15,578 bases of DNA from a virus (taxonomy: Duplodnaviria > Heunggongvirae > Uroviricota > Caudoviricetes), in the IMG/VR virus record IMGVR_UViG_2534682222_000014, positions 1 to 15,578 of that record; one strand, given 5' to 3'. Of the stretch, positions 3,940 through 10,362 are shown piece by piece. Under the pieces are notes generated by a model. The model ran no database searches, had not been told where the DNA came from, and was given only the letters and a program-made list of their open reading frames with translations. The position numbers and the translations under genes were made by a program. Within the stretch, counting starts at the first letter, position 1. Every line of letters begins with the position of its first letter.

Positions 3940-4326
3940 TCAGGCGGCTGCACCCGCCGGTTCATATCTGCTGATCGTTATCTCTACCCGACCTTTCGGC
4001 ACTACGGGTCCCCATTCCACCAGCATGCGCTTAATCTGGCTGTCGTCTTCCCAGACACCCGCATGCGTCAGCGCGTCAAACAGGGCTTTGTTGTAATTAT
4101 CGATATCCCGGCGGCGCGCATCCGGCGGGTACAGAGTGATTTCAACCGCTGCCAGTTCAGTCGATGGCTTCGGGAGACGTCGTAATTGCTCAATGATCGC
4201 CACGCAGGCAGCGCTCTGGTATTTACGACCATCAGCGCTAATGAGGTGACGACCGGCCAGCGGCCCCTTATTAGGGGCGCGCCAGTAAGTGTTCACGCTC
4301 GGAGGAAAAGGCAGGATCAGTTTCAC
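3940..4326 (-). CDS. rusA: RusA-type Holliday-junction resolvase
   Basis: 128 aa, N-terminus KLILPFPPSVNTYW and acidic DIDNYNKALFDALTHAGVWEDD match RusA. GTG start overlaps the upstream stop as GTGA with GGGGAGAGG 4 nt upstream. Confidence 0.85.
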   Translation of the reverse strand: MKLILPFPPSVNTYWRAPNKGPLAGRHLISADGRKYQSAACVAIIEQLRRLPKPSTELAAVEITLYPPDARRRDIDNYNKALFDALTHAGVWEDDSQIKRMLVEWGPVVPKGRVEITISRYEPAGAAA

Positions 4327-5642
4327 GCGGCCTCTCCCCGCATATTGCGAACAAGTTCAGAAGCGGCAGTAATGATTTCGCTGGTGGCCGTTCGTTCCAG
4401 CCAGAGTTGATTGATGTTGGCTTTCAGCTTGTTCTGCTGTGATTCATCCAACATGTCAGCGCCATCTACCTGGTTGAACACAATCCCAACCTCCAGTGGC
4501 CAGATACGGGACTCGGGAAGCGGATCCGCTACTGGTTTAGCTTTCTCACGGATGTGCATGCGGATCTGGCGAATATTGGACCATCTGGAAACATCCAGGC
4601 TTCCCATGGCTGCAATGAAATCAGTGCTGTTCATGCCATATTCACCGGATGCTTCAAGGGCAACAGTGCGAATACGTTCCGACATATCCAGGCGCACTGC
4701 AGCGTCATCGAATTCAATCGACAACAACCACTCATCCACACCGAACAAAATACTCTCACGAATAAGCAGCTTCGCTTTGTCGATCGTTAATGGTGATACC
4801 TGAGTGAATTCCGGTGCTTCAACAGAATCCGCCGCCCAGGTATGCCCAAACTTCGATTCACTGAATGTGTATTCTTCTTTATCGCCAAACGCAGCTCTAA
4901 CGCATGCCCACGCCTCGACGCCGCTGACATCAAAAATATCTTTCTGAGTGAGTGGCAACTCAGCTTCTGGCTTATCAGCTGCAGGAGGTGTGGCAGTTGC
5001 AGGTTGAGACTTGCTGGCAGCAAATTGCGCCAAAGTCATAAACGCCCGCCCTTTTGCCTCCAGTTCTGTGCGGTTGATATAGCTGAACCGCTCAACACGC
5101 CACGACTTATCGAATACAGCTATGGCACCGGCAAAAAACGCGCTGGTGGGTTTCTGTTTTTCGTCAGCAGGTACAAACCACACAGGCAGATCGAACCCAA
5201 TACGACCACGAATGAATACAATGTGATCGGCATCTTCTGGCCACCACGTTTCACTCGGCGCGGCTTTTATCAGGAATACATAGCGACCGCCCTTCTCGCG
5301 CTGGGCTGCTGCGTAGTTCATGATATGCGTCATGCCGGTGATCGCCTGCTTCTCGTGGTACTGCGAACGGCTATACGGAGGGTTGCCATAACCAGCGCCG
5401 CCCAGTTCTGCCAGACGTTCAGACCAGTGCTGTGTCAGCGCGTTATCTTCGGCGGTGTACCATGCCGGGCACTTCGCGTTGTCGTCGTCAGCAAACAAGT
5501 CCAGAGCTAATGGACCAAATAGCGCGTTGATCCCCCAAAAAAGCAGATCCGGTGTCCGCCACTGATCGCCAACTTCTTTCAATTCGTGAGCTGGTTTGCT
5601 ACGCAGTGCCGCCAGCGCCTGGCAATATTTATTGGTCATCAT
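4323..5642 (-). CDS. Phage Dam-type N6-adenine DNA methyltransferase fused to a roughly 220-aa C-terminal domain of unknown function
   Basis: 439 aa. N-terminal half contains LDLFADDDN and the catalytic NPPY motif of N6-adenine MTases. C-terminal half (from about residue 215) has no motif I can assign. Start ATG overlaps the stop of the upstream initiator gene as ATGA. Confidence 0.7.
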   Translation of the reverse strand: MMTNKYCQALAALRSKPAHELKEVGDQWRTPDLLFWGINALFGPLALDLFADDDNAKCPAWYTAEDNALTQHWSERLAELGGAGYGNPPYSRSQYHEKQAITGMTHIMNYAAAQREKGGRYVFLIKAAPSETWWPEDADHIVFIRGRIGFDLPVWFVPADEKQKPTSAFFAGAIAVFDKSWRVERFSYINRTELEAKGRAFMTLAQFAASKSQPATATPPAADKPEAELPLTQKDIFDVSGVEAWACVRAAFGDKEEYTFSESKFGHTWAADSVEAPEFTQVSPLTIDKAKLLIRESILFGVDEWLLSIEFDDAAVRLDMSERIRTVALEASGEYGMNSTDFIAAMGSLDVSRWSNIRQIRMHIREKAKPVADPLPESRIWPLEVGIVFNQVDGADMLDESQQNKLKANINQLWLERTATSEIITAASELVRNMRGEAA

Positions 5643-6846: not shown

Positions 6847-7398
6847 TTATTTCTCCATACTCGAAGAGTTGTTCGCCAAGGCGCCCGGAGCTGCACACTC
6901 GCGGGCGTCACTCTTTTCAGCGACACAAAAAACTCGGTAAAGCAGCGTGACGTGCTCCTGAAACTTCGCGATCACCTGGTAGCTGTTCTCCTCTATCTGA
7001 GCACGCTCATCTGCGTCAATCACCCCATCAGCAGTAGCCTTTCGCACAAAGGTAGAATGACGACCAATCCATTCAATGGACTCCATCAGGCGCTGGTTAA
7101 TATCGGCGTTATCCAAATCATCAACATCTGCCAGCGGTACGAATACGCCTTGAGAATGGCGCGCAACGGCATCAGCAATATGAGTCGAACCACCAGCACG
7201 CTGTAGAACCATCGCCCAACCCAACGGGAATATCTGATCGCCCTCAGTGCGGAGACGGTTGAACAACCCGTTCTCTGAAGTTCCTAACCATTCCGCGGCC
7301 TCGGCATACCCACCAGGAAGGTCGGTAATGGTTTTTTTTATTGCGACCACCAGCCAGGCTGGCTGACGTTCGACTTTCCAACTAGGTTCATTACCCAC
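6847..7398 (-). CDS. CII-like phage regulatory protein (CP76-type) or YdaT-like protein
   Basis: 183 aa, GTG start with AAGGGGG 6 nt upstream, 23 bp downstream of the cro stop. Assignment rests mainly on position after cro plus general resemblance to the longer CII (CP76) family. Confidence 0.45.
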   Translation of the reverse strand: MGNEPSWKVERQPAWLVVAIKKTITDLPGGYAEAAEWLGTSENGLFNRLRTEGDQIFPLGWAMVLQRAGGSTHIADAVARHSQGVFVPLADVDDLDNADINQRLMESIEWIGRHSTFVRKATADGVIDADERAQIEENSYQVIAKFQEHVTLLYRVFCVAEKSDARECAAPGALANNSSSMEK

Positions 7399-7421
7399 GG
7401 CTAACCCCCTTGTCTCTGTGG

Positions 7422-7625
7422 TTACTGCTTGTGTTGAGAATTGTTAAGTTTGCTGTAGAGAGAAGCGTCGTATTTCAACTTCCCGTTCGTAATTCTTTCA
7501 ATGTAAAGAGCCTGTTTTTCTGGGATTACTTCACCCCATTGACATACGGCACTGTGAGTTACCCCTAAGGCAACTGCGGTTTTAGAAATGCCGCCGTAGT
7601 AGTCGACGACTGTCCCTTTATGCAT
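7422..7625 (-). CDS. cro: Cro-like repressor (P22 Cro type)
   Basis: 67 aa, ATG preceded by AGAGGA. HTH segment ISKTAVALGVTHSAVCQWGEVIPEK closely resembles P22-type Cro. Divergent from the cI-like gene across a 100-bp operator region. Confidence 0.7.
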   Translation of the reverse strand: MHKGTVVDYYGGISKTAVALGVTHSAVCQWGEVIPEKQALYIERITNGKLKYDASLYSKLNNSQHKQ

Positions 7626-7725
7626 GGTTTGAATCCTCTTTAGTTAGCATTCTTACATCGTATATGGACAGCATACTTACGTCAATAAAATGTAAGATTG
7701 CTAACGTACATTCCGAGGAGATTTT
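7626..7725. promoter_or_regulatory. Divergent oR-like operator/promoter region (pR for cro, pRM for cI)
   Basis: Minus strand: TTGACG -35 (plus 7685-7680) with TATACG/TACGAT -10 candidates upstream of cro. Plus strand: TGGACA (7665-7670) and TAAAAT (7686-7691) upstream of cI. Half-site CTTAC/GTAAG at 7652-7656, 7676-7680 and 7692-7696; 9-mer ATGTAAGAT at 7690-7698. Confidence 0.5.
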
Positions 7726-8358
7726 ATGGATACCGTTGGCAGCAGACTGAGATTTAGAAGAAAGCAGAAAAAACTTACCCAGCGCGATGTGGCTGAGTGG
7801 GCAGGAGTAAGCGCGTCTGCTGTGACCCAGTGGGAAAGTGATTTAACAAAACTTTCTGGTGAGAACTTGATATTGGTGTGTAAATGCCTTCAGTGCTCGC
7901 CAGAATGGTTGGTTTTTGGTTCAGGCGATATCGAAAATGGCATTAACATCAACTTGATGTCTGCCAGAGAGGTCCCTCTCATATCATGGGTGCAAGCTGG
8001 TAATTGGACGGAAGTAATTGGAAATCCTAATAATGAACAAGTGAAAACCACTCGAAAACTTTCTGATTCCGCCTTTGCTTTGAGGGTTAAGGGAGATTCA
8101 ATGACTTCTAGCCAGGAGTTGAGTATTCCTGAAGGTTCTATTGTTATTGTTGAACCAGAGTTCGGCTTCGTGGATGAGGCAAACGGTAAAATTGTCGTTG
8201 CTCAAACGGTATCTGGTGGTGAGGCAACTTTAAAAAAGCTGGCGATAGACCCACCGTTTTCGTACCTAATCCCACTGAATCCTGCGTTTAAACCCATTGA
8301 GGTGAATCAAGAGACCAATCTAATTGGGATAGTTAAACAAATTATCATTGACCTTTAG
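7726..8358 (+). CDS. cI: cI-type prophage repressor (N-terminal XRE HTH, C-terminal LexA-like S24 peptidase)
   Basis: 210 aa, GAGGAG RBS. HTH (LTQRDVAEWAGVSASAVTQWE), Ala-Gly cleavage site (VQAGNW), Ser nucleophile in KGDSM and Lys in ATLKKL, typical of RecA-stimulated autocleaving repressors. Confidence 0.85.
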   Translation: MDTVGSRLRFRRKQKKLTQRDVAEWAGVSASAVTQWESDLTKLSGENLILVCKCLQCSPEWLVFGSGDIENGININLMSAREVPLISWVQAGNWTEVIGNPNNEQVKTTRKLSDSAFALRVKGDSMTSSQELSIPEGSIVIVEPEFGFVDEANGKIVVAQTVSGGEATLKKLAIDPPFSYLIPLNPAFKPIEVNQETNLIGIVKQIIIDL

Positions 8359-8374
8359 CCCCTCTGGTTCCTAC

Positions 8375-8402
8375 AAGCCCGCTGATCATGCGGGCTTTTT
8401 TA
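8375..8402 (+). terminator. Intrinsic terminator directly after the repressor gene
   Basis: AAGCCCGC-TGATCAT-GCGGGCTT hairpin followed by TTTTT, 17 bp after the cI stop. Not followed by a U-run on the opposite strand, so rightward only. Confidence 0.7.
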
Positions 8403-8414
8403 TGCCTGTGAAAA

Positions 8415-8469
8415 TATAGTAAGCAAACTTACAAAATAGACTTGACTGTAAATGTAAGATGTCTAATAT
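8415..8469 (+). promoter_or_regulatory. pL-like early-left promoter with operator sites
   Basis: TTGACT (8442-8447), 16-bp spacer, TAATAT (8464-8469). Near-palindromic 18-mer TAGTAAGCAAACTTACAA at 8415-8432, and ATGTAAGAT at 8452-8460 inside the spacer, identical to the 9-mer in the oR region. Confidence 0.5.
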
Positions 8470-8505
8470 TAAATCCATCAGCAACGAACATTGTGGGCAT
8501 CAGGA

Positions 8506-8709
8506 ATGAAGATAGAGTTGGTTGTTAACGGGAAAATTACTGCTGAGTGCAGTGATGAATCGGAGTTTCTGGCATTCAATGCTGCCGTTTTTAGCGCTCT
8601 ATCGGACATGCAACTTACCCTTCATTCCGAACGAAGGGCTCGTTCAAAATCTAAAATGGCGGCCTTCAATGAGAAGTTTTTTAAAACGGATCCCACGGGT
8701 CGCAATTAA
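8506..8709 (+). CDS. Hypothetical small protein (67 aa) downstream of the pL-like promoter
   Basis: ATG at 8506 (track ORF starts at TTG 8491). AGGA lies immediately next to the ATG, so translation signals are weak. Internal basic patch HSERRARSKSK but no N-terminal Arg-rich motif, so not called N. Overlaps a convergent ORF. Confidence 0.3.
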   Translation: MKIELVVNGKITAECSDESEFLAFNAAVFSALSDMQLTLHSERRARSKSKMAAFNEKFFKTDPTGRN

Positions 8710-8914
8710 GAGAATCAAGAAGCTTAATGGTTTGATAGGTGATGGCTTCCTGTTTAACAGTGTTTTCTGGGCTTGACAGTTGATCGCGCAATAATTGTAT
8801 TTGGTTATGCAGGTCATCTGATAGTGGGCCCTCATTAGCACATATTGCAGCTGAAATGGTCTTAATCGCAGCTTCAATAGCAGTGAGTCTTAACTCAATA
8901 ATATCGTTATTCAT
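8681..8914 (-). CDS. Hypothetical small acidic helical protein (77 aa), convergent with and overlapping the previous ORF
   Basis: ATG at 8914 (MNNDIIELRLTAIEAAIKTISAAICANEGPLSDDLHNQIQLLRDQL...), embedded in a longer track ORF. Weak RBS. AT-rich. 3' end overlaps the plus-strand ORF by 29 bp. Confidence 0.3.
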   Translation of the reverse strand: MNNDIIELRLTAIEAAIKTISAAICANEGPLSDDLHNQIQLLRDQLSSPENTVKQEAITYQTIKLLDSLNCDPWDPF

Positions 8915-9183
8915 AGGTTTATCTTCTTGGCTGTGTGAGAACTCCAAGAATACCACCGAGCCTGATGTGGTGAAAAGACAGGCATAGCCCAGACGATATC
9001 TGAGTGGCTTAAAAAACAGATGGGAACCGGTGGAATCCCGGTACACAACGAAAAGAGCGCTGGCATGCAAAAAATATCTCGCAGCCGTAGCAGTACCAAA
9101 AGCCAGGATGGAACGGCAGAAACGCGGTAGTGCTCTTTTTGATGTGGTAAACCCGTAGTAGCTGTACCAGATGCTGTGTGTAG

Positions 9184-9258
9184 TCTTGGCGGTACCAGGG
9201 TCTTCAACCTTATGCAAGGGGGACGAAGATAATGTTCTACCTCGGTACCGCCCTTTTT
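9184..9258 (+). ncRNA. Long hairpin with 3' T-run; candidate terminator or processed sRNA with DicF-like ends
   Basis: Perfect 9-bp stem GGCGGTACC (9188-9196) / GGTACCGCC (9244-9252) enclosing a 47-nt loop with internal pairings (CCTT-ATGC-AAGG, TCTTC/GAAGA), followed by TTTTT (9254-9258). The 5' arm TTGGCGGTACCAG and the 3' CCGCCCTTTTT resemble my recollection of E. coli DicF. Not verified. Confidence 0.25.
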
Positions 9259-9444
9259 ACACAACAGACAAGGGCATCACCGGGCGACGGGCTCATAACC
9301 CAATCCACCCGGGCAAAAAGAAAGCGGTCTCTCAAGCCGCCGACCAATGCAGGTGCCCTTCTCTGTTGTGTATGGAGAAAGTTCGGCGGTGGCAGCCGCC
9401 TTAACTTCGTGTATGGACTAAAACCTTGTGCAGAGGAAAGTTAA

Positions 9445-10362
9445 ATGAAATTACCTAAGTTCCGTAACGCAATCGTGTACCGCGCCACACTACCTAGCAT
9501 TGAAGCTATCGAGGGGCATCTGCTTGAACTCCCCTACTCCGAGATTGGTGAAACTGAGTTTTCACGCGCCTCTTTTGTGCCAAACACGATCACTGGCGAA
9601 TTGGTCACCCCAATATCAGGTGGGTATGCCATCGTGATCCGCCATGATCAGAAAATCATTCCCCAGCATGTTGTTTTGAAGGAAGCCGCAGCACGGATCC
9701 AAAGAATCGAAGATATGTCCGGGAGTAAAATCAAACGTATCGAACGATTAGCAATTATCGACAGCGTCCGCGTTGACCTGTGTAAACGGGCATTTGTTAA
9801 ATCAACGCTGATCCTTGCGTTGTACAGCACCAACGAAAAGCTATTAGTGGTCAATACGACCAATAAAAATATTGCCGGTATGGCTGTGGCTATGCTGGTG
9901 AAAGTTGTCGGTTCCGTTAAAACAGAAACAATCAACATTAGCGATATTAAGAACGGTTTAACTACGCGGTTGAAAAACTATATCAATGGCGTGGCCAATG
10001 CTTTTGAAGGGTTTACCGTCGGCAATTATATCCAGCTGTCCCGCCTTGCCGATCAAAATGAAGTTATTCGCTACTCAGCTGAACACGACTCAATTCAAAG
10101 CGAGCTAGTTGATAGCCTTAATAGCGGCTTTACCGCTGATAAAATGGAGCTAGCAGGATGCGGTGTATCGTTCATCCTCACCGAAAATTTCCATTTTTCG
10201 CGCATCAATACCCAAGCCCAAACATTCAACGATGAAGATGATAAAGCATTTCAATGGCGCCATCAGGCCGGGACGGATCTACTCCAATTCAGCAAAGTAG
10301 TAAACCTGATGTGTGATCTTCTTTCGTACAAAGAAGAACAGCCACAAAAACCCGCAGCCTAA
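9445..10362 (+). CDS. rdgC: RdgC-like recombination-associated protein
   Basis: 305 aa, GAGGAAA RBS. N-terminal FRNAIVYR and GYAIVIRHDQKIIPQHVVLKEAAARIQRIE align by eye with E. coli RdgC ([37 protein letters not shown]); length matches. Confidence 0.65.
   Translation: MKLPKFRNAIVYRATLPSIEAIEGHLLELPYSEIGETEFSRASFVPNTITGELVTPISGGYAIVIRHDQKIIPQHVVLKEAAARIQRIEDMSGSKIKRIERLAIIDSVRVDLCKRAFVKSTLILALYSTNEKLLVVNTTNKNIAGMAVAMLVKVVGSVKTETINISDIKNGLTTRLKNYINGVANAFEGFTVGNYIQLSRLADQNEVIRYSAEHDSIQSELVDSLNSGFTADKMELAGCGVSFILTENFHFSRINTQAQTFNDEDDKAFQWRHQAGTDLLQFSKVVNLMCDLLSYKEEQPQKPAA

Follow-up and report, generated by a model that had tools for sequence, protein, structure and literature searches.

Short words recur in two non-coding regions on either side of a phage repressor gene, which raises the question of whether these words are operators bound by the repressor and, if so, which promoters they control. 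An earlier note on this DNA had proposed that they are operators for an S24-type repressor, placed in an oR-like region between cro and cI and in a pL-like region. At the level of sequence, this reading is supported by the gene content and by the overlap of the words with promoters, and it gains further support from positional identity with phage P22, from a comparative footprint across relatives, and from recognition helices that are conserved together with the sites.

Gene context and recurring words

The window (the whole 15,578-bp stretch of DNA analysed here) is part of a lambdoid prophage. The following genes and terminator surround the two regions:

6847–7398, − strand: CII-like gene (Phage_CP76/phrog_101), adjoining cro
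7422–7625, − strand: cro, 67 aa; Pfam P22_Cro (PF14549), E = 1.3e-21, 76.5 bits against a cut-off of 30.2
7726–8358, + strand: cI/c2-type repressor gene, 210 aa; Pfam HTH_3 (E = 2.3e-13) and Peptidase_S24 (E = 1.3e-20)
8375–8403, + strand: predicted intrinsic terminator, 8-pair stem with 6 G-C pairs, then a T run (terminator scan)

The cro gene is the first of the early-right operon and lies 100 bp from the divergent cI, which is preceded by a Shine–Dalgarno sequence, GAGGAG, at 7715–7720. In the repressor, the motifs VQAG (Ala-Gly cleavage site), GDSM (Ser) and LKKL (Lys) align with those of lambda cI. The terminator is predicted to end the cI transcript before pL, and a G+C-rich hairpin followed by a T run occupies its place in nearly all of the relatives listed, with differing sequences. 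The small ORF after pL (8506–8709) belongs to no family in Pfam or PHROG and has no conserved counterpart in the Enterobacter or Raoultella relatives, so it is not recognisable as an analogue of N. The DNA of the interval 7300–8800 is identical in only two of 5,426 complete E. coli genomes, in one of which (L001) the prophage end with xis/int adjoins yecN-cmoA, and a megablast search of this interval against 50,697 phage records returned no match.

The 9-mer ATGTAAGAT, described in the earlier note as common to both regions, occurs in the window only at 7690–7698 and 8452–8460, both times on the + strand (expected count 0.10; a count of two was reached in one of 200 shuffles), and the longer shared word at these two places is an identical 11-mer, AAATGTAAGAT. 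As had been stated, the second copy lies in the spacer of the pL-like promoter, between TTGACT (8442–8447) and TAATAT (8464–8469), a pair of hexamers that the promoter scan finds as well. The threefold recurrence of GTAAG/CTTAC in each region was likewise reproduced, on either strand, at 7652, 7676 and 7692 in oR and at 8419, 8428 and 8454 in oL. Since the total of GTAAG in the window is not above chance (23 against 20.7 expected), the signal lies in local clustering and not in the overall count. The near-palindromic 18-mer TAGTAAGCAAACTTACAA is also present, at 8417–8434 rather than at 8415–8432, its coordinates having been off by 2 nt.

The 18-bp unit and its placement relative to promoters

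The words resolve into inverted pairs of 5-mers whose separation is always 4 bp. Each half-site consists of the 5-mer core and 2 flanking bases on its side, so that every pair extends to an 18-bp site. The sites, with their cores in brackets, and the promoters around them are:

7641–7658: OR1-like predicted operator, TAGTTAG-CATT-CTTACAT (core GTTAG-CATT-CTTAC, 7643–7656); exact pattern match, over the start region of pR and into its −10 by 2 nt
7665–7682: OR2-like candidate operator, TGGACAG-CATA-CTTACGT (core GACAG-CATA-CTTAC, 7667–7680); right half strong, left half weak
7690–7707: OR3-like predicted operator, ATGTAAG-ATTG-CTAACGT (core GTAAG-ATTG-CTAAC, 7692–7705); exact pattern match, containing the first 9-mer and the probable pRM −10
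8417–8434: OL2-like predicted operator, TAGTAAG-CAAA-CTTACAA, which is TAGTAAGCAAACTTACAA (core GTAAG-CAAA-CTTAC, 8419–8432); exact match, 7 nt upstream of the pL −35
8452–8469: OL1-like predicted operator, ATGTAAG-ATGT-CTAATAT (core GTAAG-ATGT-CTAAT, 8454–8467); pattern match, containing the second 9-mer, with the pL −10 in its right half-site
7657–7685, − strand: pR, for cro; −35 TTGACG (7685 to 7680), 17-nt spacer, −10 TACGAT (7662 to 7657) (promoter scan)
7693–7698, + strand: probable pRM −10, TAAGAT, within OR3 (from P22)
8442–8469, + strand: pL-like promoter, TTGACT, 16-nt spacer, TAATAT (promoter scan)

Judged from these sites, the predicted operator unit is an 18-bp imperfect palindrome of 7-bp half-sites, nnGT(A/T)AG, around a 4-bp centre that is free to vary; its consensus is roughly ATGTAAG-N4-CTTACAT, and G stands at half-site position 3 in 9 of the 10 half-sites. 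The operator reading is thereby kept in refined form, with the 18-bp pseudo-palindrome and its variable centre replacing the 9-mer as the unit, and with the middle oR site having one good half. The 9-mer itself is one half-site plus two centre bases, its final 'AT' belonging to the centre.

Within the window, zero-mismatch matches to GTWAG-N4-CTWAY are confined to 7643, 7692, 8419 and 8454, positions that all belong to the two control regions (expected 0.10, against 7 strand-matches, a count reached in none of 200 shuffles), figures that are not independent evidence, because both the pattern and the PWM were derived from the very sites they score. In the 19.5-kb prophage stretch of L001 the pattern likewise matches at these four places and nowhere else. 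A PWM scan of the window gave no further credible site, the next-best positions (784 and 1202) scoring in the range of shuffled sequences. A search with the PWM for a third OL site, either between OL1 and OL2 or upstream of OL2, gave no scoring position; the space is taken up by the cI terminator.

In oR, where the sites overlap pR and pRM, two strong sites flank the weak middle one, with centres at 7649.5, 7673.5 and 7698.5 and spacings of 24 bp (OR1–OR2) and 25 bp (OR2–OR3). OR2 lies within the pR spacer and shares 3 nt with the pR −35, the overlap involving its conserved right half. Taken by itself, it scores no better than chance with the PWM (12.05, where the best score per shuffle has a median of 11.15), so that the status of OR2 rests on position and conservation. 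On the left, OL1 spans the pL spacer and −10, starting 10 nt after the start of the −35, and OL2 overlaps no promoter hexamer.

The hexamer TAAGAT at 7693–7698 is probably the pRM −10. The promoter scan found no consensus-level pRM, and the placement is taken solely from P22 homology; by this placement, pRM transcripts would begin near 7704, ahead of the Shine–Dalgarno sequence and 21 nt before the cI ATG. Two neighbouring hexamers were also considered as the pRM −10: TAAAAT (7686–7691) was rejected, its second position being A, T, G or C among relatives, and TAACGT (7702–7707) was set aside, as TAAGAT fits the P22 annotation in both sequence and position.

The reference was P22 (record NC_002371), in which operators and promoters are annotated. 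The two phages have in common the gene order (cro, OR, c2, OL/PL), a repressor built from HTH_3 and S24 domains (c2 is 42% identical), a Cro of the all-helical P22_Cro family (46% identical), and 18-bp sites with 7-bp half-sites that end in AAG and a 4-bp centre, which is uncontacted in P22 (P22 examples: ATTAAAG-AACA-CTTAAAT, ACTAAAG-GAAT-CTTTAGT and ATTTAAG-ATGA-CTTAACT). The spacings of the OR centres are 23 and 25 bp in P22 against 24 and 25 bp here, while the overlap of the pR −35 with OR2 (3 nt), the overlap of the pR −10 with OR1 (2 nt), the distance between the OL1 and OL2 centres (35 bp), the gap from the end of OL2 to the pL −35 (7 nt) and the offset between the starts of the pL −35 and OL1 (10 nt) are the same in both. 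The PRM −10 of P22 is annotated as TAAGAT at OR3 positions 4–9, the same hexamer at the same positions as here. In both phages CATCAGCA follows the pL −10, where the P22 record annotates the 5' nt of the early-left RNA; by analogy, the pL transcript is predicted to start near A8477, within this sequence.

What sets the two phages apart is above all the half-site, which is nnT(T/A)AAG in P22 and nnGT(A/T)AG here, the contacted position 3 being T in every P22 half-site read and G in its place here. The recognition helix of c2 is SNVAISQWE, against SASAVTQWE in the present repressor, the first two residues changing from NV to AS, and the helix of Cro is SDAAVSQW in P22 against THSAVCQW. The P22 repressor binds its 18-bp sites as a symmetric dimer that contacts positions 2–7 and 12–17 and leaves the central 4 bp uncontacted, and a change of T3 to C abolishes specific binding (PMC4267663). 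Both marks of the P22 immunity specificity (imm P22), namely T at position 3 and the helix SNVAISQWE, are absent here; with G3 for T3 and AS for NV, the sequences suggest that this phage is probably heteroimmune to P22. The surroundings differ as well. In P22, 4 nt precede the ATG in the PRM transcript, whereas cI here would have a 21-nt leader with a Shine–Dalgarno sequence, and here, unlike in P22, a terminator (8375–8403) separates cI from OL. P22 has an OL3, of which we found no counterpart here; c1 adjoins cro in P22, its place being taken here by the CP76/YmfL-type CII-like gene, and no gene-24/N-like ORF is recognisable after pL in this phage.

Conservation of sites and recognition helices among relatives

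Peptide-seeded scans recovered relatives whose repressors are 57–100% identical to this one: 56 in viral contigs and 5 in genome contigs, the latter from Citrobacter, Enterobacter, Raoultella and Morganella. From these, a footprint set of 34 distinct oR and 42 distinct oL sequences was assembled, the related loci being homologous modules and not independent events.

Among the 34 oR sequences, a conserved block extends from 7642 to 7707, in which the half-site columns are invariant or show A/T wobble only, while the centre and inter-site positions vary and the flanks outside the block diverge. The half-sites of OR1 are invariant save for A/T wobble at 7645, with variation at the centre position 7651, and those of OR3 are invariant save for A/T wobble at 7703; in OR2, CTTACGT is invariant and the left half keeps only CA. 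The pR −35 is invariant, and its −10 has the form TAnnnT in nearly all sequences (TACGAT, TAGCAT, TAGGAT, TATATT). Among the 42 oL sequences, TTGAC, AATGTAAG and CTAATA are invariant. OL2 keeps GTAAG and CTTAC around a centre with at least 12 different forms, and the OL1 centre (8459–8462) is variable too, with at least 10 forms. The final 'AT' of the 9-mer is kept more strictly in oR (A7697 in 31 of 34, T7698 in 34 of 34) than at the equivalent OL1 bases (A at 8459 in 34 of 42, T at 8460 in 33 of 42; G at 8461 in 27 of 42), a difference explained by the probable role of TAAGAT as the pRM −10. Relatives carry different genes after pL, so the operator–promoter module travels with the repressor gene.

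The helices that would read these sites are conserved with them. Every cI relative read has the helix (S/T)ASAVTQWE without variation, and the same constancy holds for the Cro helix, (T/S)HSAVCQW, in all relatives read apart from L036, in which no Cro ORF was recovered. In a protein-independent scan, the pL/OL1 DNA pattern TTGAC-N4-AATGTAAG-N4-CTAATA was compared with 2.9 million viral contigs; 80 loci were read, 74 of them with at least 1 kb upstream. All 74 have a same-strand upstream repressor with SASAVTQWE, 32–100% identical to this cI, a proportion that overstates independence since the loci are homologous modules. All 74 also carry further full sites, mostly an OR1/OR3-like pair 49 bp apart, an OL2-like site, or both. 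Helix and operators are shared even by a repressor that is only ~30% identical and has no recognisable S24 catalytic domain. That helix and half-site persist to ~30% overall identity is telling despite shared ancestry.

The closest sequenced phage is Morganella phage IME1369_02 (KY653119), whose repressor is 56% identical and also has the helix SASAVTQWE. Operators of the same type stand in the same places (GTTAGCATACTTAC, GTAAGCTTGCTTAC, GTTAGCAAACTTAT and GTAAGTTAACTAAT), although the host belongs to another genus and the remainder of the phage genome has no relationship to this one in DNA sequence (no megablast match). Yersinia phage YeP2 and Escherichia phage vB_EcoM-720R4, with repressors 47–49% identical, share the family and the layout, but their helix, (S/N)RVTVTGWE, and their palindromes, of the type ATGTAGGA-NN-TCCTACAT, differ, and with them the immunity specificity. 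With lambda the shared logic comprises divergent cI and cro, a tripartite OR of ~24-bp spacing, OL placed across pL, and a repressor of the self-cleaving S24 type; the C-terminal domains align with E = 1.4e-15, Ala-Gly, Ser and Lys motifs included. The lambda operators, by contrast, are 17 bp long with the symmetry axis on a base pair and have an unrelated half-site sequence, and the lambda Cro has a different fold from the Cro here (PMC6649833). In lambdoid phages the standard scheme is that cI and Cro share three imperfectly palindromic OR sites (PMC6649833).

Alternative readings, the predicted switch and its immunity group

Selection for RNA polymerase binding could in principle produce recurring words of this kind, if they were −10 and −35 hexamers and UP-like A/T tracts with incidental palindromes. 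Probable −10 hexamers do fall on TAAGAT in OR3 and on TAATAT in OL1, the OR2 half-site CTTACGT borders on the pR −35, and some of the conservation of the right half of OL1 (the pL −10) and the left half of OR3 (the putative pRM −10) could reflect promoter function. We nevertheless regard this explanation as highly unlikely: OL2 lies outside the hexamers and keeps GTAAG and CTTAC in the 42 relatives while its centre is free, so its conservation is not attributable to RNA polymerase binding; the left half of OR1 and the right half of OR3 also lie outside hexamers and are invariant save for A/T wobble; and polymerase binding leaves unexplained why the same 5-mer returns in inverted orientation, always 4 bp apart. 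That an A/T-rich word recurs merely by chance in these intergenic regions, both of them A/T-rich, has a negligible probability. Such a coincidence would agree with the window-wide level of GTAAG, which is not enriched, but not with the expectation of 0.10 for the 9-mer or for the full-site pattern (seven strand-matches), and it is effectively refuted by the comparative data, in which the sites persist across genera and down to the ~30%-identical repressor.

Granting that the sites are real, they might serve a single regulator, either Cro or cI alone, or else the CII-like protein (6847–7398) or a host protein. A CII-like activator gene (Phage_CP76, phrog_101) does adjoin cro. CII-type activators, however, bind direct repeats at pRE in the cII-proximal region, unlike the symmetric sites at pR and pL found here. 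Neither the cI nor the Cro helix varies where the operators persist, SASAVTQWE accompanies all 74 loci found by DNA pattern alone, and in P22 and lambda both proteins act on the same sites (PMC6649833), all of which makes a single or foreign regulator quite unlikely. Very improbable, finally, is an asymmetric recognition word of 9 to 15 bp (ATGTAAGAT... or ATGTAAGWWTGCTAA), used as a direct or oriented repeat with no symmetric dimer site. The identity of the 11-mer AAATGTAAGAT at its two places and the recurrence of ATGTAAG-A(T/A)TG-CTAA in OR1 and OR3 speak for such a word; against it, the bases after ATGTAAG vary at OL1 (8459, 8460 and 8461), at least 12 versions of the OL2 centre occur, all strong sites pair one half-site with an inverted partner at a distance of exactly 4 bp, and the P22 repressor, a homologue, occupies 18-bp sites as a symmetric dimer (PMC4267663).

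On the observed sequence, spacing, promoter overlap, conservation pattern and co-occurrence of helix and operator, we thus return to the operator reading and consider it very likely that this prophage has five 18-bp operators (OR1–3 and OL1–2) bound by dimers of the cI/c2-type repressor, with a P22-type Cro acting on the same sites. By analogy with P22 and lambda, the repressor would fill OR1 and OR2 in a lysogen and block pR. The filling of OR2 would probably be cooperative, since this site has one weak half, and the order of occupancy and the activation of pRM would be expected to follow the same models. Repressor on OL1 and OL2 would block pL, and OR3, lying over the pRM −10 and start, may provide negative autoregulation of cI; through OR3, Cro would probably turn off cI. 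Stimulated by RecA, the repressor would cleave itself at the conserved Ala-Gly site, which would relieve repression and induce the prophage.

This would very probably be an ordinary P22-type phage switch whose immunity type and recognition sequence have so far gone undescribed. Literature searches with the half-site word and for the Morganella phage returned nothing on these operators, and the literature searched yielded no binding, footprint or transcript-start data for this phage or its relatives. We tentatively put forward, as a real possibility, the joint reading that the sites define a widespread, undescribed enterobacterial immunity group, that this group is a natural variant of the P22 c2 specificity in which the helix change from Asn-Val to Ala-Ser goes with the change of operator position 3 from T to G on an otherwise identical 18-bp scaffold, and that phages with cleavable and non-cleavable repressors in it could be cross-immune. 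Its members would comprise at least 74 viral contigs and prophages in E. coli, Citrobacter, Enterobacter, Raoultella and Morganella. Because the same helix and operators occur with and without S24 repressors, SOS-cleavable and apparently non-cleavable phages could be cross-immune.

The general understanding of phage switches is unchanged by these findings; the mechanism would be ordinary, and their use lies mainly in a ready-made operator map. The locus offers a concrete map of predicted operators, with promoter assignments, for a prophage immunity type that lacks experimental description, and it leads to the prediction of heteroimmunity to P22 and of homoimmunity among prophages of five enterobacterial genera. 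It also supplies a natural sequence pair, NV/T3 against AS/G3, for the way in which P22-type repressors may read operator position 3.

Adenine methyltransferase and an antisense reading frame in the window

Two reading frames on the minus strand stood out:

4323-5642, minus strand: phage N-6-adenine-methyltransferase, 439 aa
8681-8914, minus strand: 77-aa ORF of phrog_28250, annotated as hypothetical protein WP_001058060.1

In the methyltransferase, the Pfam Dam domain was confined to residues 19-199, and the C-terminal 240 residues gave no Pfam match at E ≤ 0.001. The 77-aa ORF lies in a gene-poor stretch (8470-9445), antisense to the pL transcript and tail to tail with an unconserved small ORF (8506-8709). 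Its position recalls that of P22 sieB, which is likewise transcribed against pL. Neither an N/gene-24-like ORF nor nutL was recognised downstream of pL in the window.

A possibly altered cI gene and apparently altered cI-pL intervals in relatives

A cI homologue in a bacterial genome has an unusual length:

Citrobacter murliniae CP163158.1, 1501-2131: cI homologue

Its best segment was 100% identical to the window's cI. The ORF ends after 142 aa and the match spans 631 nt as against 630, which suggests a 1-bp insertion; the repressor would then be frameshifted, unless the extra base is a sequencing error. In three viral contigs (L055-L057), the oR operators were kept, and unrelated, coding-like sequence came after the cI stop codon; no terminator-OL-pL module was found within ~500 bp after that stop, pointing to an apparent insertion between cI and pL.

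Recognition helices and predicted operator specificity of related repressors

The next-closest repressors to the window's cI (47-49% identity) were those of Yersinia phage YeP2 and Escherichia phage vB_EcoM-720R4, whose oR and oL regions, when compared, had the same layout as the window's. These repressors carry the helix (S/N)RVTVTGWE, and the palindromes at their oR/oL include ATGTAGGATATCCAACAT and GTAGGATTGCCTACAT; judged by sequence, the two phages are a second predicted specificity group inside the same repressor family.

A more distant repressor was encoded by three viral contigs (IMGVR_UViG_2924479673_000007, 2937570898_000006 and 2905957205_000002), as an ORF of 222-226 aa lying in the 1 kb that precedes the pL/OL1 pattern. 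It shares ~30% identity with the window's cI (29% by BLASTP, 32% in global alignment), yet its recognition helix is again SASAVTQWE, with no residue changed, and its operators are of the window's type. The C-terminal part of this protein gave no match to Peptidase_S24, and KAKKEH occupies the place of the catalytic GDSM. This repressor may be non-cleavable and have an immunity specificity in common with the window's cI.
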